Shown: positions 4,239 to 63,273 of the stretch, in pieces
How the letters are laid out: the number at the start of each line of letters is the position of its first letter
How positions within the stretch are numbered: position 1 is the stretch's first letter
Source of the DNA: an uncultured Planctomycetales bacterium
Lineage (GTDB): Bacteria > Omnitrophota > Gorgyraeia > Gygaellales > Profunditerraquicolaceae
Direction of reading: 5' to 3'
DNA: 64,000 nucleotides
Assembly (NCBI GenBank): GCA_964579435.1
Contig: CAZOGI010000008.1
Location: forward strand, 2,096-66,095
Position numbers and translations under genes: made by a program
The notes under the pieces: model-generated
The model's input: the letters and a program-made list of their open reading frames with translations, nothing else
The model's database searches: none
Told to the model about the DNA's origin: nothing

Positions 4239-5281
4239 CCATGGATTACCGCTCGATACTGGTTATCAATTTGGGGGGGATCGGGGACGTGCTCCTCTCG
4301 ACGCCGGCCCTGCGCGCCCTCCACGAACGCTTCCCCCGGGCGCGCCTCGATCTGCTGGTCGTGCCGCGCTGCAGGGAACTGCTCAGCGGCCTCACCTACC
4401 TCAACGGCATCTACACCCTCGAGCGCTCGAACCCCGCGCGGCTCCTCGGCAACATCCTGACCCTGCGCGCGCTGCGCCAGCGGCGCTACGACCTTGGCCT
4501 GAACATGCGCACGCTCGTCACCAACAGAGGCGCACGATTCATCAAACTACTCCTGTCCGCGATCAGGCCATCCCTGACTGCCGGGAGAAACACCTGCGGA
4601 CGCGGGGTCTTCTTCAACATTTCGATCCCCGAAGAGCTGCCGGGAGAGCGCTTCGAAGCGGATTACGATCAGTCCCTCGTCGAATCCCTCGGGGCCGCGA
4701 TACGGGACCGCTCCCTTGATCTGACCATCGCCGCGCAACAGCACGCCAGGGCAGAAAAGATCATCCGTGCTTCGGCTCACCCCGAACGCATGAACATTGC
4801 CGTGCATCCGGGAGGCAAGCCGTCGCACCGCTGGCCGTTGGAACGTTTCGCGCTGCTCATGCGGCGCCTGGCGGAGCGTTTTGACGCGCGATTCTTTCTG
4901 ACCGGGGACCGCAATGAAAAAAAACTCTGCGCCGCTCTGGCGAGACGCTCGGCGGTACAGGCAACGGACCTTTCGGGCGCGCTTTCGCTCAAAGAGCTGG
5001 CGGCGCTGCTGCTGCGATGCCGGCTGCTCATTACCAACGACACCGGCACGATGCATTTGGCCGCTGCCCAATCCGTGCCCCTGGTCGCGATTTTCGGGCC
5101 CGGCTATCTCAAGCGCTACGACCCGCGCGTCCTTTCAGCGCAGAGTCGCGTCGTCTTTACCGAAACACCATGCGCCCCCTGCGACCGTACGGTCTGCGCA
5201 GACGCACGATGTCTGGGCGGGATCAGCGTAGAACAGGTCCTGAACGAAACACTGCGGGCCTTGGGGGAACCGCCACGATGA
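4235..5281 (+). CDS. Glycosyltransferase family 9 (heptosyltransferase-like)
   Basis: ILVINLGGIGDVLLSTPALRAL and ITNDTGTMHLAAAQSVPLVAIFGP motifs. ATGA overlap with the upstream gene. Confidence 0.7.
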   Translation: MTMDYRSILVINLGGIGDVLLSTPALRALHERFPRARLDLLVVPRCRELLSGLTYLNGIYTLERSNPARLLGNILTLRALRQRRYDLGLNMRTLVTNRGARFIKLLLSAIRPSLTAGRNTCGRGVFFNISIPEELPGERFEADYDQSLVESLGAAIRDRSLDLTIAAQQHARAEKIIRASAHPERMNIAVHPGGKPSHRWPLERFALLMRRLAERFDARFFLTGDRNEKKLCAALARRSAVQATDLSGALSLKELAALLLRCRLLITNDTGTMHLAAAQSVPLVAIFGPGYLKRYDPRVLSAQSRVVFTETPCAPCDRTVCADARCLGGISVEQVLNETLRALGEPPR

Positions 5282-5952
5282 GCGTGCTCAAAACCGCCTA
5301 TTACCGCCTGCGCACCAGATTCGCGCCCGACGAAGGCAGGGGAGAACCTTCCAGCGGCGCCTGGCAGGAAGCGGTGCGCGAAAAGGCGGCGTCGCTGACA
5401 ACACCGCTGCAGCCTGCAAGGCTCCTGGAAATCGGCTGCGGGGAAGGGCTCTTTCTGAAACGATTCCTCGGCAGATCGGCTGCGCCGGCCCTGACTGCCG
5501 GCATCGACCGCTCATGCGAGCAATTGAACCGGGCCGCCGGGCGCCTGCAGGCTCAAACACGGGGCACCTCAGCCCTCCTGAGGGCTGACGCGCTCAAACT
5601 GCCGTTCGCCGATTCTTCCTTCGACACGGTCGTCTGCCTGAATGTGCTCATGAACCTCCCGGCGCAAGAAAAAGCGGCGGCACTCATCGCCGAAGCTGCG
5701 CGCGTGCTGCGACCCGGAGGCAGGTTCCTCTTCGATATCCGCAACCGCCGCAACCTCCTCATCCGGATCAAATACCGCCTGGCCCCTTATTACGACGGAA
5801 CGATCGACCGGGCGCACCTGCGCGCCTACGACCAAAACGAGATCAAGAGCGCCCTTCGGGGGGCGGGACTGACGCTGGCGCGGCTGCACCCCCTTGGCTT
5901 TCCCGCAACTGCCGCGGCGCCGATACTGCTTTTTGAGACGGAGAAAAAATGA
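5278..5952 (+). CDS. Class I SAM-dependent methyltransferase
   Basis: Motif I LLEIGCGEGLF, an acidic loop, and motif post-II FDTVVCLNVLMNL...LRPGGRFLF. The ATG at 5278 overlaps the upstream stop (ATGA). Confidence 0.7.
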   Translation: MSVLKTAYYRLRTRFAPDEGRGEPSSGAWQEAVREKAASLTTPLQPARLLEIGCGEGLFLKRFLGRSAAPALTAGIDRSCEQLNRAAGRLQAQTRGTSALLRADALKLPFADSSFDTVVCLNVLMNLPAQEKAAALIAEAARVLRPGGRFLFDIRNRRNLLIRIKYRLAPYYDGTIDRAHLRAYDQNEIKSALRGAGLTLARLHPLGFPATAAAPILLFETEKK

Positions 5953-7133
5953 GCTTCGGCCCCTACCGCATACCGGTCGTCGGATATCCGTTTTGCGCGC
6001 GCGAGCTTTTTTTGATCCCCAAACCCCGGGCGCGGGAACGATTCGCCGCGTCCCTGAAGGCGTACCTGGGGATGGCATCCGCGCTCCTTCTCGACTCAGG
6101 GACCGCGGGGCTTCTGATCCTCTTAATGGCCCTGCGCAGGCTTTCGGCGAAAACCGAGGTCATCCTTCCGACCTATACCGCCGCCGGCGTCCTCTTTGCC
6201 GTGCGCAGCGCCGGACTCCAGCCGGTGCTCTGCGACTGTTCGCTCACCGATTTCAACCTGGACCCGGCAGACCTGCCGCGCCGGGTTAACGCCAACACCC
6301 TGGCGATCGTCGTCGCGCACATGTTCGGCATACCGATGGAGGAGACCCCAACGCTTAAGGCGCGCTTCCCCGAGACCTTCCTCATCGAAGACTGCTGCCA
6401 GGCGCTCGGCAGCAGGATCAAAACAGCTCCCGTCGGCTCTTTCTCCGATGCGGCGGTCTTAAGCTTTAATCGGGGCAAAAACATGCCGCTGGGCTGCGGC
6501 GGATGCGTCCTCGCCCGCGCGCAGGAAGTGGCCAAAGCACTGCAAGAAACCTACCGCAGGCAAGTCGGTGCCTGCACCATACCCATGCGACTGGCATCGC
6601 AAGCCCGGCTCCTGGCGCTCGCCGCGCTCATGCAGCCCCGGCTCTACGCACTCTGCAGCCCTGCCCTCGCCGGAATGCGCGAACGCATGCCTTCCCCGCA
6701 CATACAGCCGCACAGCCTGCCGCCGTTCCTGGCGGAAGCCGGAGACCGGATGATCGCTCGGCTCGACGAACTAAGCGCTGTTCGCAACCGCACCGGAAGC
6801 CGCCTGCTTGAGGCAGCCCGGCGCAATCCGCACTGCGACATCCCGCAGATACCCGCGACGAGCTTTACGGCGTTCAACCGCGTGCCGCTGCTGGTACGGG
6901 ACACGCGGATCCGGGAGACACTACAGGAGAAGCTGTCCGCAAAAGGGATCGAGACCTCGCCCATGTACGGGGCTACCCTCGACCGGCAATTCGGCCTCGC
7001 CTGCGCAGAAGGCGATCTGGAGAACGCCCATTCTTTCTGCGCACAGCTCCTGACCCTGCCGGCGCATCCGCTGCTCAGCCCCCGGATGGCCGATGAGATA
7101 TGCGCGGTCCTGGAAAGAGGAGACCGGGGATGA
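5949..7133 (+). CDS. DegT/DnrJ/EryC1/StrS-family PLP-dependent aminotransferase
   Basis: Family-typical layout: small-domain residues, IEDCCQALGS (equivalent to DAAHALG), and SFSDAAVLSFNRGKNMP carrying the PLP lysine. Confidence 0.7.
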   Translation: MSFGPYRIPVVGYPFCARELFLIPKPRARERFAASLKAYLGMASALLLDSGTAGLLILLMALRRLSAKTEVILPTYTAAGVLFAVRSAGLQPVLCDCSLTDFNLDPADLPRRVNANTLAIVVAHMFGIPMEETPTLKARFPETFLIEDCCQALGSRIKTAPVGSFSDAAVLSFNRGKNMPLGCGGCVLARAQEVAKALQETYRRQVGACTIPMRLASQARLLALAALMQPRLYALCSPALAGMRERMPSPHIQPHSLPPFLAEAGDRMIARLDELSAVRNRTGSRLLEAARRNPHCDIPQIPATSFTAFNRVPLLVRDTRIRETLQEKLSAKGIETSPMYGATLDRQFGLACAEGDLENAHSFCAQLLTLPAHPLLSPRMADEICAVLERGDRG

Positions 7134-8281
7134 TCCCGCTGCGCAACCTCAACCGTTTTCTGGGAAAAGCCCTGCGGCAACCGCGGTATGCCCTGCGTGT
7201 CCTGCGTAAACGCCTGCACGCGCAGCTGCTCTACCGCCGCACGGACGCACGCGCCGCAGCTCCCGAAGCGATCACCCTGTTTTTAACGCATCGCTGCAAC
7301 CTCCACTGCCGCATGTGCGGACAGTGGGGAGAATCCGGCGTCACCAAAAAAACCCATCCCGAACGGATTACCGAGGAAGCCGATGGCGCGCTCCTGGAAC
7401 AGCTGATCGATTCGGTTTCCCCCTTCGGCCCGTCGATCACGCTCTTCGGGGGGGAACCGCTCCTGTACCAGAACGTCCTCGGGCTTATCCGGCACATCAA
7501 AGAGAAGAAACTGCACTGCGTCCTGATCACCAACGGCTCGCTCCTGGAGAGGACGGCAGCCGGCCTGCTGGAGGCCGGGCTCGACGAACTCAATGTCTCG
7601 CTGGACGCCTACGGGACGCTGCACGACGAGATCCGCGGGATGAACGGGCTCTTCGAGCGCATCGCCCAAGGGCTCAAGGAAATCTCCCGTCTCAAGAAAG
7701 AGCGGAAAAGCGCCAAACCCCTGGTCAACCTCCAATGCACGATCACGCGCTACAACCTCGAAGCGCTCGAGGGGCTGCTGCGCGCGGCAGAGGAGACGCA
7801 TGCCGACTCCCTGACCTTCCATCACCAGATATTCCTCGACCGCGAGGCGCTGCGGCAACAGCGCCGGACCGATGAGCAGATCGGCGGCGATTCCGGCGAC
7901 TGGGAAGGGTTTGTCTGCGATCCCAAGATAGATCCCCAACGCCTCATGCAACGCATACACGCCATCCGCGCCCGGCGCACCTCATTCAGCGTCGACTTTT
8001 ACCCGAACTTCGGCGCGCGGCAGATGCAGCGCTACTACGCCCCGGCGTCTTACCGCCCGGCGCAACACTGCCGCTGCCTGAGCCCCTGGCTCGTCGCCTA
8101 CGTTTTTCCCGACGGCTCGGTGCGGCCTTGCCTCAACAGCACGTATTCATTCGGATCGCTCAAGGATAAGCCGTTTCTGTCCGTATGGAATTCACCCGCG
8201 GCGCTTGCCTACCGGCGCGCGCTCCGGGAGCGCGGGATCTTTCCGGCCTGCGTGCGCTGTACCGAACTCTACCGATACTGA
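7130..8281 (+). CDS. Radical SAM protein with C-terminal SPASM/twitch-type Cys-rich domain
   Basis: CxxxCxxC cluster motif THRCNLHCRMCGQWG, a SAM-binding GGEPLL motif, and C-terminal cysteines (CRCLSPW...RPCLNS...PACVRCTELY). The ATG overlaps the upstream stop (ATGA). Confidence 0.75.
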   Translation: MIPLRNLNRFLGKALRQPRYALRVLRKRLHAQLLYRRTDARAAAPEAITLFLTHRCNLHCRMCGQWGESGVTKKTHPERITEEADGALLEQLIDSVSPFGPSITLFGGEPLLYQNVLGLIRHIKEKKLHCVLITNGSLLERTAAGLLEAGLDELNVSLDAYGTLHDEIRGMNGLFERIAQGLKEISRLKKERKSAKPLVNLQCTITRYNLEALEGLLRAAEETHADSLTFHHQIFLDREALRQQRRTDEQIGGDSGDWEGFVCDPKIDPQRLMQRIHAIRARRTSFSVDFYPNFGARQMQRYYAPASYRPAQHCRCLSPWLVAYVFPDGSVRPCLNSTYSFGSLKDKPFLSVWNSPAALAYRRALRERGIFPACVRCTELYRY

Positions 8282-13457: not shown

Positions 13458-14375
13458 ATGTATACTGCTTACTGGGGACTGACAGAAAAACCGTTCGAGA
13501 ACACCCCGGACCCGAAATTCCTCTTTCATTCGCAGCAGCACAACGAAGCGCTGGCTCGACTGCTTTATGTTGTGCATGAGCGAAAGGGCGCGGTGCTCTT
13601 AACAGGGGAGTATGGGAGCGGAAAAACTTTACTTACCCGTGTCCTCTGGCAAGAGCTGCAGCAGGAAAATATCTACCAGTCGGCCTTCATCCTCAATCCC
13701 CGTTTAAACGGCGTCGAATTCATCCAGGAGATCGTCAACCAGCTCAACGGCGCCGAAACCACCCCCAGCAAGATCAATCTTTTCCACAGCCTCCACAAGA
13801 TCCTCTATGCCAACTACAACGCCAAGAAACACACCATCATCATTATCGACGAAGCGCAGGCGATCAAGGATCCGGACATTTTCGAAGAGCTGCGGCTGCT
13901 CCTCAACTTCCAGCTCGACAACACCTTCCTGCTGACCATCGTGCTCATCGGACAGCCGGAGCTCAAGACCACCGTCAGGCAGCTACCCCAGCTCATGCAA
14001 CGGCTGGCCGTGCGCTACCACCTCAAAGCGCTCAACAAAAGCGAAGCGATCGATTACGTCCTGCACCGCCTGAAGGTATCCGGGGCGAAAGAGGAGATCT
14101 TCACCGCCGAAGCGCTCGCCGCGGTCTACAACTGCGCCGGCGGCATCCCGCGCAAAATCAACAATATCTGCGATTTGGCGCTGCTGGTGGCGTTCGGCAA
14201 CGGCCAGAAATCGATCGACGCGCGCGTCATCAACGAAGTCACCAAGGACCTGGAGATCGAGCTTCCCGAGAACACCCAGCACGTCGATTCCATCCAGAAA
14301 GAGCGCACCCCGCCGAGAGAACAGGAAAAGACCGTGCAAGAGGATGTTTCGCGGTCCGGGCCTTCTTCAAAATAA
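13458..14375 (+). CDS. ExeA/GspA-like AAA ATPase, PEP-CTERM/exosortase-locus type
   Basis: Walker A (LTGEYGSGKT) and Walker B (IIIIDEAQ). Overall layout matches ExeA-like ATPases associated with polysaccharide and exosortase loci. Confidence 0.6.
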   Translation: MYTAYWGLTEKPFENTPDPKFLFHSQQHNEALARLLYVVHERKGAVLLTGEYGSGKTLLTRVLWQELQQENIYQSAFILNPRLNGVEFIQEIVNQLNGAETTPSKINLFHSLHKILYANYNAKKHTIIIIDEAQAIKDPDIFEELRLLLNFQLDNTFLLTIVLIGQPELKTTVRQLPQLMQRLAVRYHLKALNKSEAIDYVLHRLKVSGAKEEIFTAEALAAVYNCAGGIPRKINNICDLALLVAFGNGQKSIDARVINEVTKDLEIELPENTQHVDSIQKERTPPREQEKTVQEDVSRSGPSSK

Positions 14376-14382
14376 CGTCCCC

Positions 14383-15411
14383 ATGGTCGACCTCTCCAAG
14401 ATACTCAGCAAAGCAAACCGGTTACCGCAACGCGGCGCCGAACCCACCCCGGCAACGGCGGGTGAGCCGAGAACAATCGGGGAGATCATCACCCGCGCCG
14501 CGCCGCAGCAGCTCAACAAGATTGACAACCCGGAGTCGGTCGCCCTTTACCAACAGGCATGCGCCGCCGCCGAGGCGATCTACGCCTCTCCCGCGCGGCA
14601 GGGCGCAGGAAACTTCCTGCCTTCGCTGACCGAGCTCATCTCGACCCTGGCGACGCGCCTCATGCAGGAAGACCGGACCCTGCTGAAACGCTGCCTGAGC
14701 GATTACGCACAGAACGGCTATTACCTGCCGCACCATGCAGTCAACGTCTGCCTCCTTTGCCTGGAACTGGGCATCGGCATGGGATATGACCGCGCCAAGC
14801 TCACCGAACTGGGAACCGGGGCGTTCCTGCACGATATCGGGCTCGTGCAGTTCGCCGAGCTCATTACCAAACCGGTCGTCTTCGACGAAAAAGAGCACGC
14901 GGTCATCCGCCAGCACTCGGCAACCGGCGTCTCGACGCTGCAATCGCTTTCCCCCGAGGTTCCGGCAGCCATCCTCTCGATCGTCGCCCAGGCGCACGAA
15001 CGCAAAGACGGCTCCGGCTATCCGGCGGGATTAAAGGACTCCGCGATCACCGAGTACGCCCAGATCGTCGGCATCGCCGACGTCTACGAAGGCTTCATCC
15101 ACACACGGCCCTACCGACCCAAGATCAATCCCCTGGAGGCGATCAAATTCATCCTCGACAACAAAAAAACCTTCGAACCGGCGATCGTCAAGGTGCTCCT
15201 GCACCGCATCGGCATCTATCCGCTCGGCTCGGTGGTGCGCCTCAACACCAAGGAGATCGGGGTCGTCACCGACAATAATTACGATTCTCCGCTGAGCCCG
15301 GTGGTCAGCGTCCTCTCCGACACCCAGCAAAAAGAGCTCCCGCAGCCCAAGATACTCAACCTGGCGGAAACCAGGGGGGTCATCTATATAGAGGATTGCC
15401 TCAACGCATGA
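14383..15411 (+). CDS. HD-GYP domain protein (c-di-GMP phosphodiesterase family)
   Basis: HD motif (HHAVNV...FLHDIGLV), HSATG, and AQAHERKDGSGYP (the GYP signature). An alternative upstream ATG at 14344 overlaps the preceding gene. Confidence 0.7.
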   Translation: MVDLSKILSKANRLPQRGAEPTPATAGEPRTIGEIITRAAPQQLNKIDNPESVALYQQACAAAEAIYASPARQGAGNFLPSLTELISTLATRLMQEDRTLLKRCLSDYAQNGYYLPHHAVNVCLLCLELGIGMGYDRAKLTELGTGAFLHDIGLVQFAELITKPVVFDEKEHAVIRQHSATGVSTLQSLSPEVPAAILSIVAQAHERKDGSGYPAGLKDSAITEYAQIVGIADVYEGFIHTRPYRPKINPLEAIKFILDNKKTFEPAIVKVLLHRIGIYPLGSVVRLNTKEIGVVTDNNYDSPLSPVVSVLSDTQQKELPQPKILNLAETRGVIYIEDCLNA

Positions 15412-22345: not shown

Positions 22346-23151
22346 ACGGATCCTGCGCAGCGCTCCTGGAAGTCCGCGGCCTCACCGTTCGCTTCCGGCA
22401 CGACACCGGGATGCTGCCGGCAGTCGAAGACATCTCTTTTTCTATAGGCAGGAAGGAAACCGTGGTGCTGGCAGGGGAATCGGGCTCGGGCAAGACCGTG
22501 ACCGCCCTGGCGTTGTGCGCGTTGCTTCCTGCCAACGCCGTGATCGAAAGCGGCTCGGCGCTCATGGAAAATACCCAGCTTATCGGCGCCTCTGCCTCAA
22601 CCCTGGTCAGGGTCAGGGGAAAGAAGATAGCCTATATTTTTCAGGAACCCACGGCATACCTGAACCCGGTGATGACCGTTGCCGAGCAGATAATCGAGGT
22701 TATGCGCAACGATCACCCGCAGACCACGCCGGCGCAATGCCGCGCCGAAGCGTTGCAGCTACTGGAGCGCGTCCGGATCGCCTCGCCGCAACGCGTTCTG
22801 GCGCAGTATCCGCACCAGCTCTCAGGCGGGATGAACCAGCGCATAAGTTTGGCGATCGCCCTGGCGTGCAGGCCGCAGCTGCTGATCGCGGACGAACCGA
22901 CGACGGCGCTGGACGTCACCACGGAACACCAGATCCTGCTGCTGCTGAAGGAACTGCAGGCTTGCCTGGGGTTCTCGATGCTTTTTATAACCCACAACCT
23001 GGGTATCGCCCGGCGCATAGCCGCGCGCATCTGCGTGATGCACCGCGGCCGCCTCGTCGAAGAGAACGCCACCGAAGAGCTCTTTGCCCGGCCCCGGCAT
23101 GAGCATACGCGGGAGCTGGTGCGCGCGTACGAACGGATCGGAACCCTATGA
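22339..23151 (+). CDS. ABC transporter ATP-binding protein (OppD/DppD-like)
   Basis: Walker A (GESGSGKT), ABC signature (LSGGMNQR), and Walker B (LLIADEPTTALD). Confidence 0.85.
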   Translation: MVNGSCAALLEVRGLTVRFRHDTGMLPAVEDISFSIGRKETVVLAGESGSGKTVTALALCALLPANAVIESGSALMENTQLIGASASTLVRVRGKKIAYIFQEPTAYLNPVMTVAEQIIEVMRNDHPQTTPAQCRAEALQLLERVRIASPQRVLAQYPHQLSGGMNQRISLAIALACRPQLLIADEPTTALDVTTEHQILLLLKELQACLGFSMLFITHNLGIARRIAARICVMHRGRLVEENATEELFARPRHEHTRELVRAYERIGTL

Positions 23152-23915
23152 TTCTGCGAGCGGAAAACATCACCAAACTTTTTCCCCTCTGGCGCAACAC
23201 GTTTTTGCCCAACGCTTCCGTCCAAAGGGCCCTTGCGGGAGTAAGCTTCTCGGTCCGGCAGGATACGACCCTGGGCATCGTGGGGGAGTCCGGCTGCGGG
23301 AAGACCACGCTGGCAAAGATACTCCTGGGGCTGGTACCCGCAACGAGCGGCACGGTCTGGTTCGACCCCGATCGTATCAGAAATTTCCGTAAAGACGTGC
23401 AGATCGTCTTTCAGAATCCCTATAACAGCCTCGATCCGCGCATGCGCATCGCCGCTACCCTCGGTGAGCCGCTGGCGATCCACCGCATCGGATCAGTTCG
23501 TGACTATCGCAGACGCGCAGCCGAACTCCTGGAAATGGTCGGCTTGCGGGCAGACTCGCTGGGACGGTTTCCCGCCGAATTCTCCGGAGGACAGCGCCAG
23601 CGTATCTGCATCGCCCGGGCCCTGGCCTGCGAACCGAAAATCCTGGTCCTGGATGAACCGATATCATCGCTGGACCTGACGGTCCAAGTAGAGATGCTGG
23701 AGCTCTTTGAGCGCCTTAAAAAAGAGCTGCATCTGACGTATCTGTTTATCAGCCATAATCTTGCCGTCATAAAAAGCATCGCGGATGAGGTGATCGTGAT
23801 GAAAGACGGAGTCATTGTCGAAAAAAACAGTTGCAGCGGAATATTTTCTTCTGCCCAGCATCCCTATACCAAAGCATTGCTGGAAGCGGGAAGGTACAAT
23901 AATAATCTACCATAA
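23148..23915 (+). CDS. ABC transporter ATP-binding protein (OppF/DppF-like)
   Basis: Walker A (GESGCGKTT), signature (FSGGQRQR), and Walker B (ILVLDEPISSLD). Confidence 0.85.
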   Translation: MILRAENITKLFPLWRNTFLPNASVQRALAGVSFSVRQDTTLGIVGESGCGKTTLAKILLGLVPATSGTVWFDPDRIRNFRKDVQIVFQNPYNSLDPRMRIAATLGEPLAIHRIGSVRDYRRRAAELLEMVGLRADSLGRFPAEFSGGQRQRICIARALACEPKILVLDEPISSLDLTVQVEMLELFERLKKELHLTYLFISHNLAVIKSIADEVIVMKDGVIVEKNSCSGIFSSAQHPYTKALLEAGRYNNNLP

Positions 23916-23956
23916 ATTATATAATTATTGATTATGGTAGATAAAGATGCTATACT
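23907..23956 (+). promoter_or_regulatory. Palindromic operator (CTACCATAA-N16-TTATGGTAG) overlapping a TTGATT-17-TGcTATACT promoter upstream of the first pseudopilin gene
   Basis: Perfect 9-bp inverted repeat at 23907-23915 and 23932-23940. The -35 TTGATT (23928-33) lies inside the palindrome. An extended -10 TGCTATACT sits at 23948-23956. A near-identical module recurs at 26009-26057. Confidence 0.45.
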
Positions 23957-23973
23957 TTTTACAGAGGCTGCCC

Positions 23974-24378
23974 ATGCGTACATCCTTTGACCGGGGAGTA
24001 ACCTTAGTTGAAGTCATGCTGGCCGCGGGGATACTGATCTTTGCCCTGAGCGGGATGCTGGCGCTTTTCATACATTGCATGAACCTTAACCAAGCGTCCC
24101 GCCATACCGCAGAGGCAAGCAGCCATGCCCAGATGATCGTTGAACAGATCCGGACAACGAATTTCGGGGCGATCGAGGGCAATATCACGCAGTGGAATCT
24201 CACGACCAGCCAGTTGCAGTCGTCTCCGTACAGCCTCAATACGCTCACCAACGAAACAGCCATTACCAACGTCACCATCTCCGGGAATCCCCTCGGGATC
24301 TCGGTAACGGTGGCCTGGGACGAAAGGGGGAGCCGGTCGATGTCCACGCGCGTGGACACGCTCCTGACCGACTACTGA
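23974..24378 (+). CDS. Prepilin-type N-terminal cleavage/methylation domain protein (pseudopilin / minor pilin)
   Basis: MRTSFDRG|VTLVEVMLAAGILIF has a short basic leader, a glycine at the cleavage site, glutamate at +5 and a hydrophobic helix. The ORF-track start at 23947 falls inside the promoter, so 23974 is preferred. Confidence 0.6.
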   Translation: MRTSFDRGVTLVEVMLAAGILIFALSGMLALFIHCMNLNQASRHTAEASSHAQMIVEQIRTTNFGAIEGNITQWNLTTSQLQSSPYSLNTLTNETAITNVTISGNPLGISVTVAWDERGSRSMSTRVDTLLTDY

Positions 24379-24380
24379 GT

Positions 24381-24845
24381 ATGCGCGGATTCACCCTGTT
24401 GGAGCTGCTGGCCGGAGCGCTCATCACCACCATCCTGGCGGCGGCGGTCTTTTTGGTGCTGTCTTCCGGCGACGCGACGTTCCGCATGGACGCAGGCTGG
24501 GTTGACCTGCAGCAGGAAGCGCGCCGCGGCATAAACGCGATGGTGTCGCCCCTGCGAGAAGCATCCGGCGTGGTCATCACCAGCGACGATGCCAGTTCCG
24601 ACCGGATCACCTTCAACACGACCGTGCAGAGCGGGATCGTGATCTACCGCGACAGCGACGCGCGCCAGATCATACGCACCGCCGCGACAGGAACGCCCCA
24701 GGTGCTGGCAAACGACAATGATGCCCTTAATATAACGCTCTCCGGCGACGTCCTGCGGATCGCGGTGCAGCACTCCCGGTCCGTTTACTCCCGGCCGACG
24801 CTCACCTTTAACCTGACAGAAAGGATCGTGCTGAGAAATGAATAA
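24381..24845 (+). CDS. Prepilin-type N-terminal domain protein (pseudopilin / minor pilin)
   Basis: MRG|FTLLELLAGALITTIL is the canonical GFTLLE class III signal peptide. It begins 3 nt after the upstream stop. Confidence 0.6.
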   Translation: MRGFTLLELLAGALITTILAAAVFLVLSSGDATFRMDAGWVDLQQEARRGINAMVSPLREASGVVITSDDASSDRITFNTTVQSGIVIYRDSDARQIIRTAATGTPQVLANDNDALNITLSGDVLRIAVQHSRSVYSRPTLTFNLTERIVLRNE

Positions 24846-25863
24846 CCGGGGATTTGCGCTCATCTTCGGATTCACGATCATCGCGGTGCTGGCGATCCTT
24901 GCCGGGGCAACGCTCTCGCGCAGCATAAGCGAGGTCCGCCTGACGCAGGAGTATACCGAATCCAACCAGGCGTTCTGGCTGGCGGAAGCCGGGCTCGCCC
25001 AGGTCCTGGCGACGCTGCGCAATGACTCTTCCGTCACCTCGATCAGCGCGACCCCGTTGGGCAGCGGCGGCTATTCGGCGGCGATCTCCGGAAGCGGCAC
25101 CTCGCGGACCGTTATCGGCTCGGGCTTCTTGCCGTACACAAGCCCCCGCCTCACGCGTTCGATCCAGGTCACGATGGTGCGCCATGTCCCGCCTGATTTT
25201 TACGACAATGCCATCTATTCCGCGGAGAACGTGGACCTCAAAGGCACCACCTATATAGTCAACGGGAACGTGACCTATGCCACCAACATCACCAATACCG
25301 GCAACATAAACGGCACCATTGAACAGGATGCCTCGATCTCGCCGCTGGCGCGGCTGGACTTCCAGCAGTTGCGCACGATCAGCGTCGCGCAGGGGAATCT
25401 GTATGTCGTCAGCGGCAGCAAACTCGTCAACCAGGCAACCGGCCTGGAAGGATTCCCCGCATCGTTCTGGTACTCGGCGCCGACGAACTCCTCCGACCCC
25501 ACGACCGGCACGCCCAACATCGTCTATATCGAGGGGGACCTGACGCTCAACGGCAACATCGGGACCATCGGCGGATTCTTCGTCGTCGCCGGAGACGTCA
25601 TCAACACCCCGGATATCACCCAGGATGCCACGATCAACGGCATCGGGATGGTCGAAGGGGCGATATACACGCGCGGTGAGTTCCGGATAAACGGGGGAGG
25701 AGGCAACCTCAACGTCAACGGCGGGGTCTGGTCCGGGGACCAGGCACGGCTCAACGGCAACGCCCAGGTCGACTACAACGCAACGATCATGGGAGCGATC
25801 GAAGGGCTCGGCCTCTCCGGAACGTTCCAGATATCCAATTGGCACGACCTGGCCAATAACTAA
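24838..25863 (+). CDS. PilX N-terminal domain-like pilus assembly protein with N/G/T-rich repetitive C-terminal region
   Basis: N-terminus NRGFALIFGFTIIAVLAIL...AFWLAEAGL follows the PilX_N pattern (hydrophobic helix plus an AEAGL-like motif). The C-terminal 200 aa are rich in N, G and T, resembling a beta-solenoid (NGNVTYATNITNTGNINGT...). Confidence 0.5.
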   Translation: MNNRGFALIFGFTIIAVLAILAGATLSRSISEVRLTQEYTESNQAFWLAEAGLAQVLATLRNDSSVTSISATPLGSGGYSAAISGSGTSRTVIGSGFLPYTSPRLTRSIQVTMVRHVPPDFYDNAIYSAENVDLKGTTYIVNGNVTYATNITNTGNINGTIEQDASISPLARLDFQQLRTISVAQGNLYVVSGSKLVNQATGLEGFPASFWYSAPTNSSDPTTGTPNIVYIEGDLTLNGNIGTIGGFFVVAGDVINTPDITQDATINGIGMVEGAIYTRGEFRINGGGGNLNVNGGVWSGDQARLNGNAQVDYNATIMGAIEGLGLSGTFQISNWHDLANN

Positions 25864-25905
25864 GACACCAGACACCCGAGACAAGGCACCAGAGACCAGG
25901 GGCAA
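25864..25905 (+). repeat. CA-rich tandem heptamer array (ACCAGAC-like units), member of a dispersed intergenic repeat family
   Basis: GACACCAGACACCCGAGACAAGGCACCAGAGACCAGGGG starts one nt after the stop codon. It has the same 7-nt periodicity as the other family members. Confidence 0.5.
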
Positions 25906-26008
25906 CAAAAAATTATAAGAAGACAGGCTATACCCCTCTTCTCATTCCACACTTCAAATCCCCCCTAAAGCTTCTGTTTTAGCGCTGCTGATCAGCACCT
26001 CATTTATT

Positions 26009-26057
26009 CTACCAAAAATTCTTATTTATTTAATTTTGGTAGTTTTTATGCTATACT
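26009..26057 (+). promoter_or_regulatory. Second copy of palindromic operator (CTACCAAAA-N16-TTTTGGTAG) with TGcTATACT extended -10, upstream of the second pseudopilin sub-operon
   Basis: 9-bp inverted repeat at 26009-26017 and 26034-26042 with a 16-nt AT-rich loop. ATGCTATACTT at 26048-26058 is identical to the string at 23947-23957. GGAGGAGG RBS, ATG at 26082. Confidence 0.45.
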
Positions 26058-26081
26058 TGTTTTGGGAGGAGGCGACGGGGT

Positions 26082-26495
26082 ATGCGCAGATACCTAAAGA
26101 AAAAGGGCACAACCCTGGTTGAACTGCTGATCGCCAGCATGATCCTGGTGGTCGCCTTCGGCGGACTCTGCAGCAGCCTGGCGGCAACGGTCTTTATAAT
26201 CGATACCGCCCGGGACGAAACACAGGCAATTACCGACCTGCGCAACATCATGGAACGCATCCGCTCGACGCCGCTCTCTAATATCGTCTCGCTGTTTCCC
26301 CATAACGTCGCAAACGGCCCCGGCAGCAACCCGTACAGCGCCATCGTCGGAGGCTTTCAGCTTACCGCGGAGGCCATCACCATATCGTACCAGGATCCCA
26401 ACAGCGATCCCCTAAAGATCTGCGCCCAAGTACAGTGGCAGGATCGCCGGGGCACGCTCAGGAGCATGCTCCTGAGTACCGCAAAAACGCGCTGA
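26082..26495 (+). CDS. Prepilin-type N-terminal domain protein (pseudopilin)
   Basis: MRRYLKKKG|TTLVELLIASMILVVAF. Confidence 0.6.
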   Translation: MRRYLKKKGTTLVELLIASMILVVAFGGLCSSLAATVFIIDTARDETQAITDLRNIMERIRSTPLSNIVSLFPHNVANGPGSNPYSAIVGGFQLTAEAITISYQDPNSDPLKICAQVQWQDRRGTLRSMLLSTAKTR

Positions 26496-26497
26496 CC

Positions 26498-27097
26498 ATG
26501 AAAAACTCACCGGTTAACAGAGATGCTCGTCGCGGGTTCTCGCTTTTCGAAACGCTCCTCGCCTGCACTCTCACCTGCATCATCGCCGCTGCCGTGTACC
26601 AGATGCAGATCGCCGGATGCACCGGCATCGAACACGGCAAAATCAGGGCGGACCTGCAGGCACAGGCGCGCAATACCCTGGCGCGGATACAGGCGGAGCT
26701 CTCGGCTGCCACGCGCGCGCAGGCAAACACTCCCCCCAACATTTCGATTCCCTCGGCCCCCGGCAACACGACGATCACCTTCTATCTGCCGACCTACACC
26801 TTTTCGGGCAACCGGATTACCGGAGTGGTCATGGATACCGACGGCGCGATAGTCTGGGACGTGAATAATCCGGTGAGCTTCGAATACGATCAGTCTAACC
26901 GTCAAATACTACGCCGCCAAGGAGCCTCTGCCAGCGTCATCGCAACGCACGTCTCAGGCGTCACCTTCACGGACAGCGTCATCGATCCGGCCCTGGCGCT
27001 GGATGAAGTCCGGCTTGAGGTACAATTAGAGATGCAGACAACCCAAGGCAGAACGGTCCAGATCAGCCTGCCCTGCCTTATCCGGCTGCGCAACTAA
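26498..27097 (+). CDS. Prepilin-type N-terminal domain protein (pseudopilin)
   Basis: MKNSPVNRDARRG|FSLFETLLACTLTCIIAAAV. The ATG lies 3 nt after the upstream stop. Confidence 0.6.
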   Translation: MKNSPVNRDARRGFSLFETLLACTLTCIIAAAVYQMQIAGCTGIEHGKIRADLQAQARNTLARIQAELSAATRAQANTPPNISIPSAPGNTTITFYLPTYTFSGNRITGVVMDTDGAIVWDVNNPVSFEYDQSNRQILRRQGASASVIATHVSGVTFTDSVIDPALALDEVRLEVQLEMQTTQGRTVQISLPCLIRLRN

Positions 27098-27112
27098 AAC
27101 AGGGAGGCACCC

Positions 27113-28747
27113 ATGCGCCCGGTCACGCGCGGACCAAACAGACGAAAAGGACAAGCCCTGATCGCGGCATACCTGGCGATAACCGCGCTGCTTGCCCTGG
27201 CGGCGACGATCTCGACGAAAGCCATCTCCGAACGCAACACCGCAGCCCATCGGCAGATGCACTCCCAGATCTTTTATCTCGCCGAAGGGGGGATGGAAGA
27301 GACCCTGGCGGCATTCGCCTCGCAGATCGCTGATTACCAGATCAGCCCGGAGACCGACACCTTCAGCTGGAACTCGACCTTCGCTCCCTTCTCCAACGCC
27401 AGCGTCCGTTCCGAAATAACGCCGATAGACTCCGCAAGCAGCATGATCAGCGAATCCGACACCAATATCCTGGTGCGCCGCTATCTCATCAACTCAACCG
27501 TCACTCATCCCGACAACCCGGCACTGACCATCACCATCCACCAGATATTCGTCCGGCGCCTCATCCCAACGTTCCAGCATTCGGTCTTCTATGACCAGGA
27601 CCTGGAGATGCTCCCCGGACCGAACATGACTCTCACCGGACGCATCCATTCAAACCAGGACATATACCTCGATTCCCATAATGCCTTTACCATCAATTCG
27701 ACGTATCTTCACTCTGCAGGCAACATCTACAACAACCGCAAAGACGACTCAAGCGTGCTGGGAGGGGATGTTTACATACGCATCAACGCAACGAGCCCAA
27801 TACAGTGGGCGGCCATGAACAACCTCGATTGCGACAACGCCAACTGGACCAGCGCCGCCCTCGCGCGCTGGAACTCAACCGTCATGAGCAGCGTCCACGG
27901 CGTGCGGCGCATCAGCGCACCATCGGTTGCCTCCGTGCAACCGGGCGGTTACTACGATACCGCGGCAAACGTCAAGATCATCGACGATAACATCTATCGG
28001 GGCGGGGTACTCCTGAGCGAAGGAACCGATTATCCCGCCGGCACCATCACCGCCAACAATACCTTCTACAATAACCGCGAAGGCCGCAGGGTGCGTATGA
28101 CTACTATCGACCTGCGCAAGCTCGCCGGCTTCAGCAGCGCCAACGCTACCGCAGCCGATTTTCCCAACAACCTGCCGTCAAACGGACTGCTCTTCGCCAG
28201 CCGCAGCAGCGTACCGACCGGAGAGCAGGCGGGGATACGGCTGGCCAACGGCTCCGAGATACACCGCAGCGGCGGCCTCACCGTCGTCACCAACGACCCC
28301 CTCTATATCCAAGGGGATTACAACACCGTCAATGAGAAACCCACCAGCGTCATCTGCGATGCGGTCAACCTCCTCTCCAACTCCTGGAGCGACACCGCAA
28401 GCACCCTGACCCTGACCAGCCGTATCCCCTCGGCAACCAGCGTCATCTGTGCCTTTATCGCCGGAGTCGACGAAACGACTTCCGGCCAATATAACGGGGG
28501 ACTGGAGAATTACCCTCGCCTGCACGAAAAATGGGACAACCGGCAGTTGGCGATCAAAGGTTCTTTCGTCAGCCTGTGGGAAAGCCAGGTCGCAACCGGC
28601 AGCTGGGTCTATGGCGGCACCCAGTATACCGCACCGACGCGAAGCTGGCAGTATAATACCGCCTTCAACAACCCCGCCAATCTTCCGCCGTTCACCCCCT
28701 GGGCGGTGGAGACCCGACGCATCGCCTGGTGGGTAGAGAATTCTTAA
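27113..28747 (+). CDS. Large PilX_N-like pilus-associated protein (544 aa), N/T/S-rich; candidate tip/adhesin component
   Basis: N-terminal hydrophobic helix (ALIAAYLAITALLALAATI) is followed by QIFYLAEGGMEETLA, the PilX_N AEAGL-like motif. The remainder is rich in N, T and S with many N-x-T/S sequons. Confidence 0.5.
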   Translation: MRPVTRGPNRRKGQALIAAYLAITALLALAATISTKAISERNTAAHRQMHSQIFYLAEGGMEETLAAFASQIADYQISPETDTFSWNSTFAPFSNASVRSEITPIDSASSMISESDTNILVRRYLINSTVTHPDNPALTITIHQIFVRRLIPTFQHSVFYDQDLEMLPGPNMTLTGRIHSNQDIYLDSHNAFTINSTYLHSAGNIYNNRKDDSSVLGGDVYIRINATSPIQWAAMNNLDCDNANWTSAALARWNSTVMSSVHGVRRISAPSVASVQPGGYYDTAANVKIIDDNIYRGGVLLSEGTDYPAGTITANNTFYNNREGRRVRMTTIDLRKLAGFSSANATAADFPNNLPSNGLLFASRSSVPTGEQAGIRLANGSEIHRSGGLTVVTNDPLYIQGDYNTVNEKPTSVICDAVNLLSNSWSDTASTLTLTSRIPSATSVICAFIAGVDETTSGQYNGGLENYPRLHEKWDNRQLAIKGSFVSLWESQVATGSWVYGGTQYTAPTRSWQYNTAFNNPANLPPFTPWAVETRRIAWWVENS

Positions 28748-32455: not shown

Positions 32456-32506
32456 CAAACACACAAGACACAAGACACCAGACACAAGACACATGACACA
32501 AGAAAA
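32456..32506 (+). repeat. CA-rich tandem heptamer array (ACAAGAC ACAAGAC ACCAGAC ACAAGAC ACATGAC ACAAG)
   Basis: About six clean 7-nt units sit 12 nt after the acyl-CoA dehydrogenase stop and 57 nt before etfB. Both flanking genes are on the same strand. Confidence 0.5.
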
Positions 32507-34569: not shown

Positions 34570-34938
34570 ATGGATGCGTCGGATAAACGCAAGTACCCGC
34601 GGCTCTTCTTCAACGTCAAGATCGATTACCAGAAGGTCGACGCCAACGCCCTGCCCCTGGCCAACACCTACAGCAAGAACATCGGGGGAGGCGGCATCTG
34701 CATGTTCTCGCTGGAGAAATTGGAGACGGGCACCGGGATCAAGCTGACCTTCACGCTGCCCGACCATAACAAGACCGTCGAAGCGCTCGGCAAGGTCGTC
34801 TGGGTTGACCGCTTCAGCATCGAGGACCGCCAGAACGAGACCGCCTACGAAGCCGGCATCGAGTTCGTTGATATCAACGACAAAGACCGCGCCCTCATCC
34901 AAACCTATGTCCTGGGGATCATGAAACAACCCTCCTAA
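34570..34938 (+). CDS. PilZ domain protein (putative c-di-GMP receptor)
   Basis: RKYPRLFF (the RxxxR-like motif) and NIGGGGICM (DxSxxG-like) are the PilZ signature pair. Single-domain protein of 122 aa. Confidence 0.6.
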   Translation: MDASDKRKYPRLFFNVKIDYQKVDANALPLANTYSKNIGGGGICMFSLEKLETGTGIKLTFTLPDHNKTVEALGKVVWVDRFSIEDRQNETAYEAGIEFVDINDKDRALIQTYVLGIMKQPS

Positions 34939-35111
34939 GAATCCTCGGAAACGCCACGCTCCTTTTCAGTAAAATATCCATAACTGTCTGGAAAATTTAT
35001 AATTACGTTAATCTCAATCTTCATTCTTTAGCACTGTTTCTCAATCATATGTCAAGAAATGTAAAGATTCTCCTTGACAAATCGTTTCCCTTTGGTACAA
35101 TTGCAGTTAAG

Positions 35112-35306
35112 ATGAACATGAAAGAACCTTCCGCTGCAGGCCTTCTCACCATCGACGAGCTTTCGCTCTACCTGAAAGTCACCCGCAGGACCATTTACGA
35201 CTGGCTCAAACACAATAAGATCCCGGCGATCAAACTCGTCGGACAGTGGCGTTTCCGCAAAGAAACCATCGACGCCTGGATCGAGCACAACTCAAAAGCG
35301 CAATGA
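35112..35306 (+). CDS. Helix-turn-helix DNA-binding protein, excisionase/MerR-like HTH_17 family (64 aa)
   Basis: LLTIDELSLYLKVTRRTIYDWLKHNKIPAIKLVGQWRF. Preferred start is the ATG at 35112 after a TTGACA-15-TACAAT promoter at 35075-35101. The track's 35049 start lies inside an AT-rich putative regulatory region. Confidence 0.5.
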   Translation: MNMKEPSAAGLLTIDELSLYLKVTRRTIYDWLKHNKIPAIKLVGQWRFRKETIDAWIEHNSKAQ

Positions 35307-38680: not shown

Positions 38681-39898
38681 TTAAGAATTAAAGGCGAGCA
38701 GACAGCAGGTGGTATTCTTGCCGCTGTGTTTGGCTTGATAGAGCGTTTTATCGGCAAAACTGAGGAGTTCCGCAGGGGTTTTGCCGTCCTCAGGATAAGT
38801 ACTCACCCCCAGGCTGGCGGTCAGTTTCTGATGCGGCATGATCTCTTCGTGGATAAACGCATGCTTGCCGATATCCTCCCGCAGGCGCTCCGCGATCAGG
38901 AATGCCTCGCGCTTGTCGGTCTGCGGCAGGATGACCATGAATTCCTCGCCGCCGTAGCGGGAGACGAAATCCATCTTGCGGGAATGGCTCTTGAGCAACT
39001 GGGCCAGGTCTTTGAGGATCGTATCGCCGGCCTGATGCCCGAACGTGTCGTTATACACCTTAAAATCGTCTATATCCAGCGCGATCAGGCTGACCGGGAC
39101 TTTAACCGCCTTTGCCTTCTCCAGCTCCTCCTGCAGGGTAAACTGGAAATAGCCGTGGTTCCACAGCCCGGTGAGGGAATCCTGGTGGGTGCGGATAACC
39201 GTTTTTTCGTACAGATGCGAATTCTCGATCGCCAGGCCCGCCTGGTTGGCGAGCATGATGAGCATGCGCAGGTCGCTGTTGGTGATCGATTTTTTGGTGA
39301 TGAAGTTGTCGGCCAAAATGATGCCGTTGACCTTGTCCTTGGCTTTCAGCGGCACGACCGCCAGCTCCTCGGCCTTGAGCAGCTGGATGACCGGGTCGTT
39401 GGCGTAACGGCCGATCGCCTCTTTATTCAGATGCAGCGGCATCCCGTCCAGCACGCAAAGGGACAGGAGGCTCTCGGCGTTCTCCTTCAGGGAAACCTTT
39501 ACGTGCTTGACCTGACGGTTGAAAGAGGTCTCGGGCGCTCCGTTCAGAGCCTTGTAGGCGCCGATAAGCTCCTCGAGGCTTTTGCGCTCCTGCTCGATCT
39601 GCTTCCAGATGCGGTTCGCCTCATCGCCGCTTTCGGGACCGATAGCCATCTTGCCTTCGATCAAACCTTCTTTTTCGTTAACCAAAAAGAGGATGGAGCG
39701 GTTGAAGCCGAGGCCGATGTGTGCGGTGACGCCGGTGAGGATGATATAGAGGATTTCATCGAGCTTGAGGGTGGTACGCATGGCGTTGGAGACCTCGTAG
39801 AGAACCGTCAACTCGGTCTTCGTGCGCTCAAGCTCTGCTTTTATCCGATCCAGCTCCTGCTTGAACTCTTCAGGAACAGGGTGTTTTTCGATGGTCAT
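38681..39898 (-). CDS. Diguanylate cyclase (GGDEF) with N-terminal GAF-like sensory domain(s)
   Basis: The minus-strand ORF translation contains RYGGEEFMVILPQTDKREA (the GGEEF active site), the inhibitory-site-like LDIDDFKVYND, and upstream GAF-like segments. Confidence 0.8.
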   Translation of the reverse strand: MTIEKHPVPEEFKQELDRIKAELERTKTELTVLYEVSNAMRTTLKLDEILYIILTGVTAHIGLGFNRSILFLVNEKEGLIEGKMAIGPESGDEANRIWKQIEQERKSLEELIGAYKALNGAPETSFNRQVKHVKVSLKENAESLLSLCVLDGMPLHLNKEAIGRYANDPVIQLLKAEELAVVPLKAKDKVNGIILADNFITKKSITNSDLRMLIMLANQAGLAIENSHLYEKTVIRTHQDSLTGLWNHGYFQFTLQEELEKAKAVKVPVSLIALDIDDFKVYNDTFGHQAGDTILKDLAQLLKSHSRKMDFVSRYGGEEFMVILPQTDKREAFLIAERLREDIGKHAFIHEEIMPHQKLTASLGVSTYPEDGKTPAELLSFADKTLYQAKHSGKNTTCCLLAFNS

Positions 39899-40039: not shown

Positions 40040-40068
40040 TTGCACTAACCGATTGATTATGCTATAGT
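40040..40068 (+). promoter_or_regulatory. Sigma70-like promoter TTGCAC-17-TGcTATAGT; ATG at 40075 at predicted +1 (leaderless)
   Basis: TTGCAC 40040-45, TATAGT 40063-68 with an upstream TG, ATG at 40075. Confidence 0.45.
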
Positions 40069-40074
40069 TAACGC

Positions 40075-51844: not shown

Positions 51845-51883
51845 ACTGTCCTTGTGTCCTGTGTCTTGTGTCTTTGTAATACC
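51845..51883 (-). repeat. CA-rich heptamer repeat array in reverse orientation (GTCTTGT-type on + strand)
   Basis: The + strand reads CTGTCCTTGTGTCCTGTGTCTTGTGTCTTTGT, which is the reverse complement of ACAAAGACACAAGACACAGGACACAAGGACAG. Confidence 0.45.
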
Positions 51884-51952: not shown

Positions 51953-52309
51953 ATGAAGATCTCCTGGGAAGAAAAAAAAGGAATCGCGCTCTGTAGCCTG
52001 AAAGGGGAGCTGACCATCGATACGGCAGACCAGCTCAAGAAGGAGCTTTCGGCCCTGAGCGCGCCGCCGCGCAGCGTGATCATCAACTGCACGGGCCTGA
52101 CGTACCTCGACAGCACCGGGATCGCCACGATCCTGGGCCTCGCCAAAACCCTGGAGGAGGCGGCAGCAAAGATGTTCCTGTGCTGCCTTTCCCCGAAACT
52201 GCGCACGGTACTGAGAATCACCAGGCTGGACTCGGTGCTGGCGATCTGTGACTCGCAACAGGAGGCGTTGCAACAATGCCTGAACCCGCCGCAACGGCAG
52301 CAGGAGTGA
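51953..52309 (+). CDS. STAS domain protein (anti-sigma factor antagonist, SpoIIAA/RsbV-like)
   Basis: INCTGLTYLDSTGIATILGLAK contains the conserved phosphorylatable-serine-region motif (DSxG). Confidence 0.7.
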   Translation: MKISWEEKKGIALCSLKGELTIDTADQLKKELSALSAPPRSVIINCTGLTYLDSTGIATILGLAKTLEEAAAKMFLCCLSPKLRTVLRITRLDSVLAICDSQQEALQQCLNPPQRQQE

Positions 52310-53004
52310 AAACCAGCAAGATATTCGAGTACGAGAAGAAGGTGCGCCAGACCTACGGAAAACTCAAAGCAGCGTACGCCGAGATCAAGGAATCGTACTC
52401 GGAGATGATCTTCCGCTTTGCCCTTGCGGCGGAATACAAGGACGAGTCCACCGGCACGCACCTGGTGCGCATCGCCGACTACTGCACCGAGATCGGCAAA
52501 GGCCTGAAGCTGCCGCGGCGCGCGCTGGAGACCCTGCGCTACGCCAGCCCCATGCACGACATCGGCAAGCTGGTCATACCGGACGCGATCCTCAAGAAAC
52601 CCGCGGGGCTGACCCCCGAGGAGCGGGAAGTCGTCAAAAAGCATACCACCCTCGGCGCCGATATCTTCAAAAGCTCCTCCTCCTCGATCCTCAAGGCCGC
52701 CGGGGAGATCAGCCTGACGCACCACGAACGCTACGACGGCACCGGTTATCCCCGCGGCCTGCGGGGGGACGCGATCCCGCTCTTCGGCAGGATCACCGCC
52801 CTGGCCGACGTTTTCGACGCGCTGACCACCAAAAGGCCGTACAAAGACGCGTACGACTTTCCGCACGCCTGCCGTATCATCGCGCACGAAGCGGGGAGCC
52901 ACTTTGACCCGCGCATCGTCTCGGTCTTCCTCGCGCGCAAAAAACGCATCCGCGAGATCCTCAAAGCCACCCAGGACATCGAACACTTCATTGAAGGACA
53001 CTGA
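52276..53004 (+). CDS. HD-GYP domain protein (c-di-GMP phosphodiesterase family)
   Basis: HD (MHDIGKL), HTTLGADI, HHERYDGTGYPRGL (GYP), and ADVFDALTTKRPYK. Overlaps the STAS gene by 34 nt. Confidence 0.75.
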   Translation: MPEPAATAAGVKTSKIFEYEKKVRQTYGKLKAAYAEIKESYSEMIFRFALAAEYKDESTGTHLVRIADYCTEIGKGLKLPRRALETLRYASPMHDIGKLVIPDAILKKPAGLTPEEREVVKKHTTLGADIFKSSSSSILKAAGEISLTHHERYDGTGYPRGLRGDAIPLFGRITALADVFDALTTKRPYKDAYDFPHACRIIAHEAGSHFDPRIVSVFLARKKRIREILKATQDIEHFIEGH

Positions 53005-53011
53005 CACCACC

Positions 53012-57117: not shown

Positions 57118-57121
57118 AACC

Positions 57122-63269: not shown

Positions 63270-63273
63270 AGAC

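Follow-up and report, generated by a model that had tools for sequence, protein, structure and literature searches.

In Escherichia coli, NikR binds GTATGA-N16-TCATAC, a palindromic operator with a 16-nt spacer (PMC7055735). Here we describe an element of related layout, the inverted repeat CTACCAWAA-N16-TTWTGGTAG, found at two promoters in a 64,000-nt stretch of contig CAZOGI010000008.1 (hereafter, the window) from an uncultured bacterium of the phylum Omnitrophota, each promoter preceding a three-gene operon of minor pilins. In both systems the half-sites are 16 nt apart within a promoter, where NikR binds as one repressor whose DNA-binding units are about two helical turns apart (PMC7055735). 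However, the NikR half-sites are 6 bp long and of unrelated sequence, and they control a nickel importer rather than pilins. No NikR-type gene (ribbon-helix-helix plus metal-binding domain) was seen in the window, and although the adjoining ABC transporter is of the Opp/Dpp/Nik type, the palindrome lies at the 3' end of the transporter operon and not at its promoter. A second counterpart is bioO, an inverted repeat whose two half-sites over the -35/-10 region are bound cooperatively by a BirA dimer (PMC5640590). That operator differs in controlling biotin genes. The E. coli bioO has the same 9-N16-9 geometry with an AT-rich centre, and its sequence (TTGTAAACC...) is unrelated to the palindrome. 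Finally, LytTR-type activators (AlgR, AgrA, ComE) recognize 9-bp units about two turns apart, 5' of pilus, competence and quorum-sensing operons. Their sites consist of direct repeats spaced by 12-13 bp, 5' of a poor -35, whereas the palindrome is inverted, has a 16-bp spacer and lies over the -35; a LytTR-type site was ruled out on this geometry.

How Omnitrophota regulate their genes is, to our knowledge, almost entirely unexplored. These are uncultured nanobacteria, many of which are thought to be attached to or preying on other cells, and type IV pili are central to their proposed lifestyle (PMC10066038).

The palindrome and the promoters of two minor-pilin operons

The two copies of the palindrome, the predicted promoter elements around them and the genes that follow are:

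23907-23915, + strand: site 1 left arm, CTACCATAA; 23913-23915 is the TAA stop codon of the upstream ABC ATPase gene
23916-23931, + strand: site 1 spacer, 16 nt, ATTATATAATTATTGA, A/T throughout but for one G
23928-23933, + strand: site 1 predicted -35 hexamer TTGATT, 17 bp 5' of TATACT, running from the spacer 2 nt into the right arm
23932-23940, + strand: site 1 right arm, TTATGGTAG, with its extension reaching 23942
23947-23957, + strand: site 1 11-mer ATGCTATACTT, predicted extended -10 (TG at 23948-23949, TATACT at 23951-23956)
23974-25863, + strand: operon 1, minor-pilin triad g1, g2, g3
23974-24378, + strand: g1, 134 aa, GspI/PilV-like
24372-24845, + strand: g2, 157 aa, prepilin N-terminal motif
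24838-25863, + strand: g3, 341 aa, GspK/PilX-like N-terminus, without Glu at +5
26009-26017, + strand: site 2 left arm, CTACCAAAA
26018-26033, + strand: site 2 spacer, 16 nt, ATTCTTATTTATTTAA, A/T throughout but for one C
26034-26042, + strand: site 2 right arm, TTTTGGTAG
26048-26058, + strand: site 2 11-mer ATGCTATACTT, predicted extended -10 (TATACT at 26052-26057)
26082-28747, + strand: operon 2, minor-pilin triad g4, g5, g6
26082-26495, + strand: g4, 137 aa
26498-27097, + strand: g5, 199 aa, with the ATG at 26498 as the corrected start
27113-28747, + strand: g6, 544 aa, 47-59% identical across Omnitrophota

The repeat is exact at both places (23907-23940 and 26009-26042, ~2.1 kb apart), and the perfect 9-bp arms with a 16-nt AT-rich spacer that had been reported for it are indeed present; at site 1 the arms reach 11 bp when extended (ATCTACCATAA / TTATGGTAGAT, 23905-23942). 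No further copy was found in the window with up to four mismatches and spacers of 12-20 nt, and 100 dinucleotide-preserving shuffles of the window gave no match, even with two mismatches. Against shuffles of these 60-nt promoter regions that preserve composition, inverted repeats of 11 bp (site 1) and 9 bp (site 2) had p <= 0.01. The half-site centres are 25 bp apart (~2.4 helical turns); if only the inner segments CAWAA / TTWTG were contacted, the distance would be 21 bp, or two full turns, and the contacts would share one helix face.

Each site stands ahead of prepilin-type genes, as originally predicted, with one three-gene minor-pilin set apiece (starts at 23974 and 26082) and with the gene start and its Shine-Dalgarno sequence at the same place relative to both palindrome copies. 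The first two proteins of each triad carry the prepilin motif G|(F/V/T)xLxE, and the third has a hydrophobic N-terminus without Glu5, as do minor pilins of the GspK/PilX type. Profile matches were weak but consistent (N_methyl, PilX_N, XpsI, PilV, ComGE, GspK and the Verru_Chthon cassette proteins A/B/C), and g6 also matched HpsA weakly. A search with g6 (E <= 0.001) returned 577 homologues; identity is 47-59% among the best 120, and nearly all named sources of those 120 are Candidatus Omnitrophota/Omnitrophica; the nearest relative (locus L092) is 59% identical. For g1, a word-indexed protein search found no homologue besides g1 itself. In L092, homologues of comEA and comEC (4880-6659) lie directly 5' of the orthologous triad, which hints at a link of these minor pilins to DNA uptake. 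The window as a whole is ~60% G+C, with nearly all genes on the + strand.

Both sites are predicted sigma-70 promoters with an extended -10 (TGcTATACT). A consensus promoter scan returned TTGATT-17-TATACT at site 1, with TG ahead of the second hexamer and a -35 matching at 4/6 positions at the optimal 17-bp spacing; the -35 of site 2 is weak (TTTAAT at 17 bp, 3/6), although acceptable for an extended -10 promoter. Judged from the hexamer positions, transcription would start at ~23963 (site 1) and ~26064 (site 2), with leaders of ~11 and ~18 nt that would begin at the Shine-Dalgarno sequences. Relative to these predicted starts, the palindrome is centred at about -39.5 (site 1) and -38.5 (site 2), and its arms fall at about -56 to -48 and -31 to -23, with the right arm abutting the -35 and the AT-rich spacer occupying the -35 and proximal UP-element zone, in keeping with the overlap that had been claimed for it.

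The 11-mer had been described as identical at the two sites and as immediately following the palindrome. The identity is confirmed but the adjacency is not: the gap is 6 nt at site 1 and 5 nt at site 2, and since it is unequal by 1 nt, we regard the palindrome and the -10 as two separate elements. The claim that the 11-mer is an extended -10 also stands, since the 29 orthologous Omnitrophota promoters that were aligned at the -10, with 82 related loci fetched, have the common consensus TGnTAtACTT directly 5' of the operon or of its leader or riboswitch. By the same token, any promoter of this operon family would be expected to look much like this, which largely accounts for the 11-mer being identical at the two sites. 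The 11-mer is a match to the consensus of these orthologous promoters across the phylum rather than a special part of the duplicated module of the original prediction. In one relative (L123), the same TTGATT is found ~17 bp (hand count) before TATACT. A third copy of the 11-mer in the window, with one mismatch (40059-40069), belongs to an ordinary promoter, TTGCAC-17-TATAGT, without the palindrome, and other promoters of the window are canonical sigma-70 types too.

The sequences of operons 1 and 2 indicate that they are old paralogues. Corresponding proteins are 30%, 38% (local) and 26% identical, and tandem minor-pilin triads are found across the Omnitrophota; this level of identity (~30%) and the phylum-wide tandem arrangement both place the duplication far back. 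Nevertheless, the two sites agree block by block. There are no differences between the 11-mers and only one in each arm (T/A at arm position 7, mirrored), whereas the spacers match at 8/16 positions (the random level for A/T-only sequence), the linkers from palindrome to -10 agree neither in length nor in sequence, and 12/40 flanking positions match. A hypergeometric test of block conservation gave P = 6.6e-5, a value that is descriptive only, since the blocks were defined on the same data and the test is partly circular. Since arms and -10 were kept while spacer, linker and flanks diverged, the pattern suggests selection on discrete blocks and not a recent copy. Such block-wise identity in ancient paralogues argues for functional constraint and for common control of the two promoters.

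A candidate repressor operator and its distribution

We favour, with moderate confidence, the interpretation that the palindrome is the operator of a single repressor common to both minor-pilin promoters. One sequence-specific dimer or tetramer, with its reading heads two to two-and-a-half turns apart, would bind at both promoters, and this shared binding would co-regulate the two minor-pilin (pilus-tip) operons; a protein clamped over -56 to -23 would exclude RNA polymerase and so repress transcription. The core promoters probably fire unaided, since the extended -10 is complete in both, a TTGATT lies at 17 bp in site 1 and relatives have the same core without a palindrome. If they are self-sufficient in this way, a bound protein would be expected to shut out polymerase, which makes repression the likeliest mode. 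Both copies also have the same placement relative to the extended -10 (5-6 nt) and to the gene start. Precedents exist in the N16 operator of NikR (PMC7055735) and in the inverted repeat over -35/-10 bound by BirA (PMC5640590). Furthermore, some relatives put a cyclic di-GMP (c-di-GMP)-I riboswitch of their own before each successive triad, as set out below, and a common signal for these operons would thus seem to be a recurring need. The coordinated control of both operons proposed in the original prediction is accordingly supported as far as common control is concerned, on the strength of the block-wise identity, whereas the repressor role derives from the presumed self-sufficiency of the promoters. 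Likewise, the dyad over the core promoter fits the classic architecture of a dimeric operator, but the compact spacing of that classic type does not apply, with half-site centres 25 bp apart.

Several points weigh against a shared repressor operator. In the window, no copy of the motif precedes any regulator gene (up to four mismatches, spacers of 12-20 nt) and no cognate protein is linked to it. Databases hold no close relative (best g6 identity 59%), hence none at a short evolutionary distance. With centres 25 bp apart, the outer parts of the arms would not lie on the same helix face, a difficulty that is removed if the AT-rich spacer is bent or if only the inner parts are contacted. In addition, the arms of the two sites differ only by a T/A change at position 7, which is present in mirror image on both sides of the dyad, and a base-paired stem predicts such a pattern more directly than a protein-binding site does. 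Finally, minor-pilin operons are controlled by activators in some bacteria, e.g., by AlgR in Pseudomonas, and the sign of regulation is uncertain. The palindrome is a candidate operator that is well delimited, lineage-specific and set on the promoter type standard for these Omnitrophota operons. An operator common to two pilus-tip operons would also be a handle for finding the regulon and the regulator from the full genome.

With regard to distribution, the palindrome was absent from the 29 orthologous promoters (-74 to -15), which contain no inverted repeat longer than 8 bp, and a mismatch-tolerant search of the 82 related loci returned noise only. An exact-motif scan of one genome per species, covering 185,579 species, gave 91 matches; no genome had more than two, and the paired arrangement of the window did not recur. 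Approximately one-third of these represent a single conserved element of Flavobacteriia with a fixed spacer, unrelated to the window, and the others come mostly from AT-rich genomes and are at the level that we estimate for chance (~35-70 expected by our own calculation). The full module (palindrome plus ATGCTATA) had no match in a metagenome scan. Taken at face value, these scans indicate that the palindrome is specific to this lineage, and with the nearest available relative only 59% identical in g6, its absence from relatives carries little information on its conservation.

The Flavobacteriia element (...ccctttttgccccaaat-CTACCATAAACTTAACCTACTAATGTTATGGTAG) is found in ~30 genomes and fits the palindrome pattern by chance, with both spacer and flank fixed. 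A conserved terminator or structured RNA is the probable explanation, without any relation to the window. Its loci in our set are:

L002, L004, L012-L014, L019, L021, L028, L030-L036, L041, L046, L048, L050, L052, L057, L059, L060, L062, L066, L072, L073, L078, L090, L091

Riboswitches of related operons and alternative explanations

Riboswitches of the c-di-GMP-I class (RF01051/RF03167) occur in the leaders of orthologous triads at 17 of the 42 related loci that were scanned with Rfam. They lie 3' of the conserved promoter, and several have a terminator-like hairpin behind them. Locus L122 has three, before successive minor-pilin units that include the operon 2 orthologue and the unit holding the g3 orthologue, and L126 has two, one per successive triad. 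The riboswitches include, among others:

L092, 6737-6821
L099, 4762-4839
L108, 3314-3395
L122, 4668-4804, 7777-7883 and 10497-10586
L126, 3336-3428 and 7600-7713

These arrangements suggest that one common control device per tandem unit is a recurring design in the phylum. The palindrome occupies the same niche, since one copy of a common device precedes each successive minor-pilin triad; it differs in that the relatives' device is an RNA in a long 5' leader, acting after initiation, whereas that of the window is a DNA palindrome 5' of the -10. No c-di-GMP-I riboswitch was detected in the window, either at the gathering score or in a search at E <= 10 around the two sites, and the predicted leaders (~11-18 nt) would be too short to hold a riboswitch. 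Since some other relatives likewise have no riboswitch, we place the palindrome in the same regulatory niche and do not claim it as a replacement. The stronger proposal, that a protein-bound operator took over the work of the relatives' c-di-GMP-I riboswitch on the tandem minor-pilin operons, with a binder that might itself sense c-di-GMP, is tentative and on balance doubtful; if true, the same operons would have changed from control at the RNA level to control by a transcription factor. A c-di-GMP-responsive regulator is an attractive guess, since the window is rich in c-di-GMP genes:

14344-15411: HD_5 (HD-GYP-type) protein
34570-34938, + strand: PilZ protein, stand-alone gene
38681-39898, - strand: GGDEF-GAF protein
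52276-53004: HD_5 (HD-GYP-type) protein

In the published survey of Omnitrophota, riboswitches and c-di-GMP are both unmentioned (PMC10066038). A promoter-overlapping palindrome is in itself an ordinary class of element, and it gains some interest as the counterpart of the riboswitches that control these operons in relatives; the contrast with the riboswitch-controlled orthologues would be a clean natural example of regulatory rewiring.

The alternative that survives best, although we regard it as rather unlikely, is that the palindrome is an activator site, with a dimer bound near -39 contacting RNA polymerase in a class II-like manner where the -35 is weak. Class II activators of the CRP/FNR type are centred at -41.5, close to the palindrome centres at ~-39.5 and ~-38.5; the -35 hexamer of site 2 matches at only 3/6 positions, and minor-pilin and competence-pilus operons elsewhere are often activator-dependent. 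However, both promoters have a full extended -10, site 1 pairs it with a 4/6 -35 at the optimal 17 bp, and the orthologous promoters of relatives have the same core without the palindrome, so that the core seems sufficient. Moreover, the distance to the -10 shifts by 1 bp between the sites, a change that activators tolerate poorly. A CRP/FNR class II site proper (22 bp, 5-N6-5 or 5-N4-5, centred at -41.5) was ruled out, the palindrome being 34 bp long with an N16 spacer and differently centred. A MerR-type promoter was likewise ruled out, since the -35/-10 spacing is the optimal 17 bp and not 19-20.

The mirrored arm difference that sits awkwardly with a shared repressor operator is better accounted for if the element acts as a nucleic-acid hairpin with a 9-11 bp stem, i.e., as a stabilizer, processing site or weak terminator at the 3' ends of read-through transcripts of the ABC operon and operon 1. 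We consider this improbable. In its favour, the stems of the two sites differ by one compensatory change only (A-U versus U-A, position 7), a same-strand transcription unit lies just 5' of both sites and TTTTT directly follows site 2; the stems are moderately stable, and the predicted RNA folds have energies of -13.5 (site 1) and -7.8 (site 2) kcal/mol (z = -3.3 and -1.6), and the DNA folds -7.5 and -6.1 kcal/mol, respectively. Nevertheless, one compensatory pair over two sequences is weak evidence, no known Rfam RNA family is found at either site, and a hairpin leaves the fixed 5-6 nt distance to the -10 without a reason; its coincidence with the next promoter would then reflect tight packing of signals. 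As an intrinsic terminator, in particular, the element was ruled out: the loop has 16 nt, the stem only three G-C pairs, site 1 has no U-tract and a terminator scan calls neither site.

Equally improbable, in our view, is that the element has no function of its own and is either what remains of a copying event (gene conversion between the sites or duplication of the promoter) or a short palindrome of a repeated or mobile kind. Such an origin would agree with the presence of only two copies in 64 kb, 2.1 kb apart and in paralogous contexts, and with the lack of a copy in the sampled relatives. A recent copy, gene conversion or a mobile element, however, should show uniform identity, whereas the arms (18 positions) and the -10 (11 positions) were kept and spacer, linker and flanks are at random level, with linkers that differ in length by one base. 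At 34 bp the element is far below the typical size of a MITE (miniature inverted-repeat transposable element), and the two copies are oriented alike and placed alike in their promoters. When examined for the properties of REP (repetitive extragenic palindromic) or MITE-like repeats, the window thus presented two copies, both in promoters and with block-wise identity. A DNA-uptake sequence was ruled out as well, the 9-mer occurring four times in 64 kb.

Pilin genes are sigma-54-dependent in several phyla, and the right arm plus the 11-mer could be read as a sigma-54 promoter (TGGTAG-N5-ATGCT versus TGGCAC-N5-TTGCW) that at site 2 has the correct GG-N10-GC spacing and three mismatches over the 11 specified consensus positions, but this is very improbable because site 1 has one base too many (GG-N11-GC) for the spacing that sigma-54 requires, because the left arm would be left unexplained and because a sigma-70 extended -10 is found at this position in all 29 orthologous promoters.

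Regulator genes and neighbouring features

It had been stated that no regulator gene is visible in the window. This proved incorrect, since three kinds are encoded, none of which is tied to the motif:

35112-35306, + strand: HTH_17/excisionase-family DNA-binding protein, 64 aa, after the PilZ gene (34570-34938) and before smc
51953-53769, + strand: RsbW/STAS partner-switching set, consisting of STAS (51953-52309), HD_5 (52276-53004), RsbW-like HATPase_c_2 kinase (52904-53437) and STAS (53386-53769)
57020-57823: OmpR-type response regulator, with its kinase as a pair spanning 56056-57823

The HTH_17 gene has a canonical promoter of its own (TTGACA-17-TACAAT, ~35075-35103), and the mechanical open reading frame that contains it (from 35049) begins too early. 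OmpR-type proteins are direct-repeat binders. The partner-switching set points to control of a sigma factor encoded outside the window. One related organism without a riboswitch (L116/L117) has a separately promoted HTH_17 gene (7845-8030, 61 aa) that stands between its operon 2 orthologue and a g1/g3-like unit. HTH_17 as the cognate regulator was set aside, since the L116/L117 gene occurs in that organism only and has no pairwise similarity to the HTH_17 protein of the window; it is a lead at most.

Upstream of operon 1 lies an ABC transporter operon of the oligopeptide type, with its last gene as follows:

23148-23915, + strand: ABC ATPase, C-terminus …LLEAGRYNNNLP followed by the stop codon

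This ATPase is ~5 codons longer than its orthologues, ending in …LLEAGRYNNNLP rather than …LLEAARA (23889-23915); the extra codons are AT-rich promoter DNA, and the TAA stop lies inside the left arm of site 1. In several relatives the operon 2 orthologue is directly 3' of the same transporter, with a g3-type unit downstream (L110, L116), whereas the order in the window is ABC transporter, operon 1, operon 2. Since operon 1 is interposed and the end of the ATPase gene reads into promoter DNA, site 1 looks like a promoter-operator that was brought against the transporter gene by rearrangement.

The intergenic gaps of the window, and only these, contain a C-rich, G-poor heptad tandem repeat, (A/T)GACACN in 2-6 copies, with 16 matches versus 0.49 expected. 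The arrays are:

25863-25908
32459-32499
51854-51873, - strand
62700-62726
63268-63287
63379-63405, - strand

One array directly follows the operon 1 stop, ~100 nt 5' of the palindrome at site 2. They may be tracts resembling Rho-utilization sites or arrays for protein binding.

Among the related loci, Rfam matches at the gathering score also included a group I intron (L095, 8323-8547) and leaders like the cspA thermoregulator (L111, 4403-4681, - strand; L121, 1520-1790, - strand).

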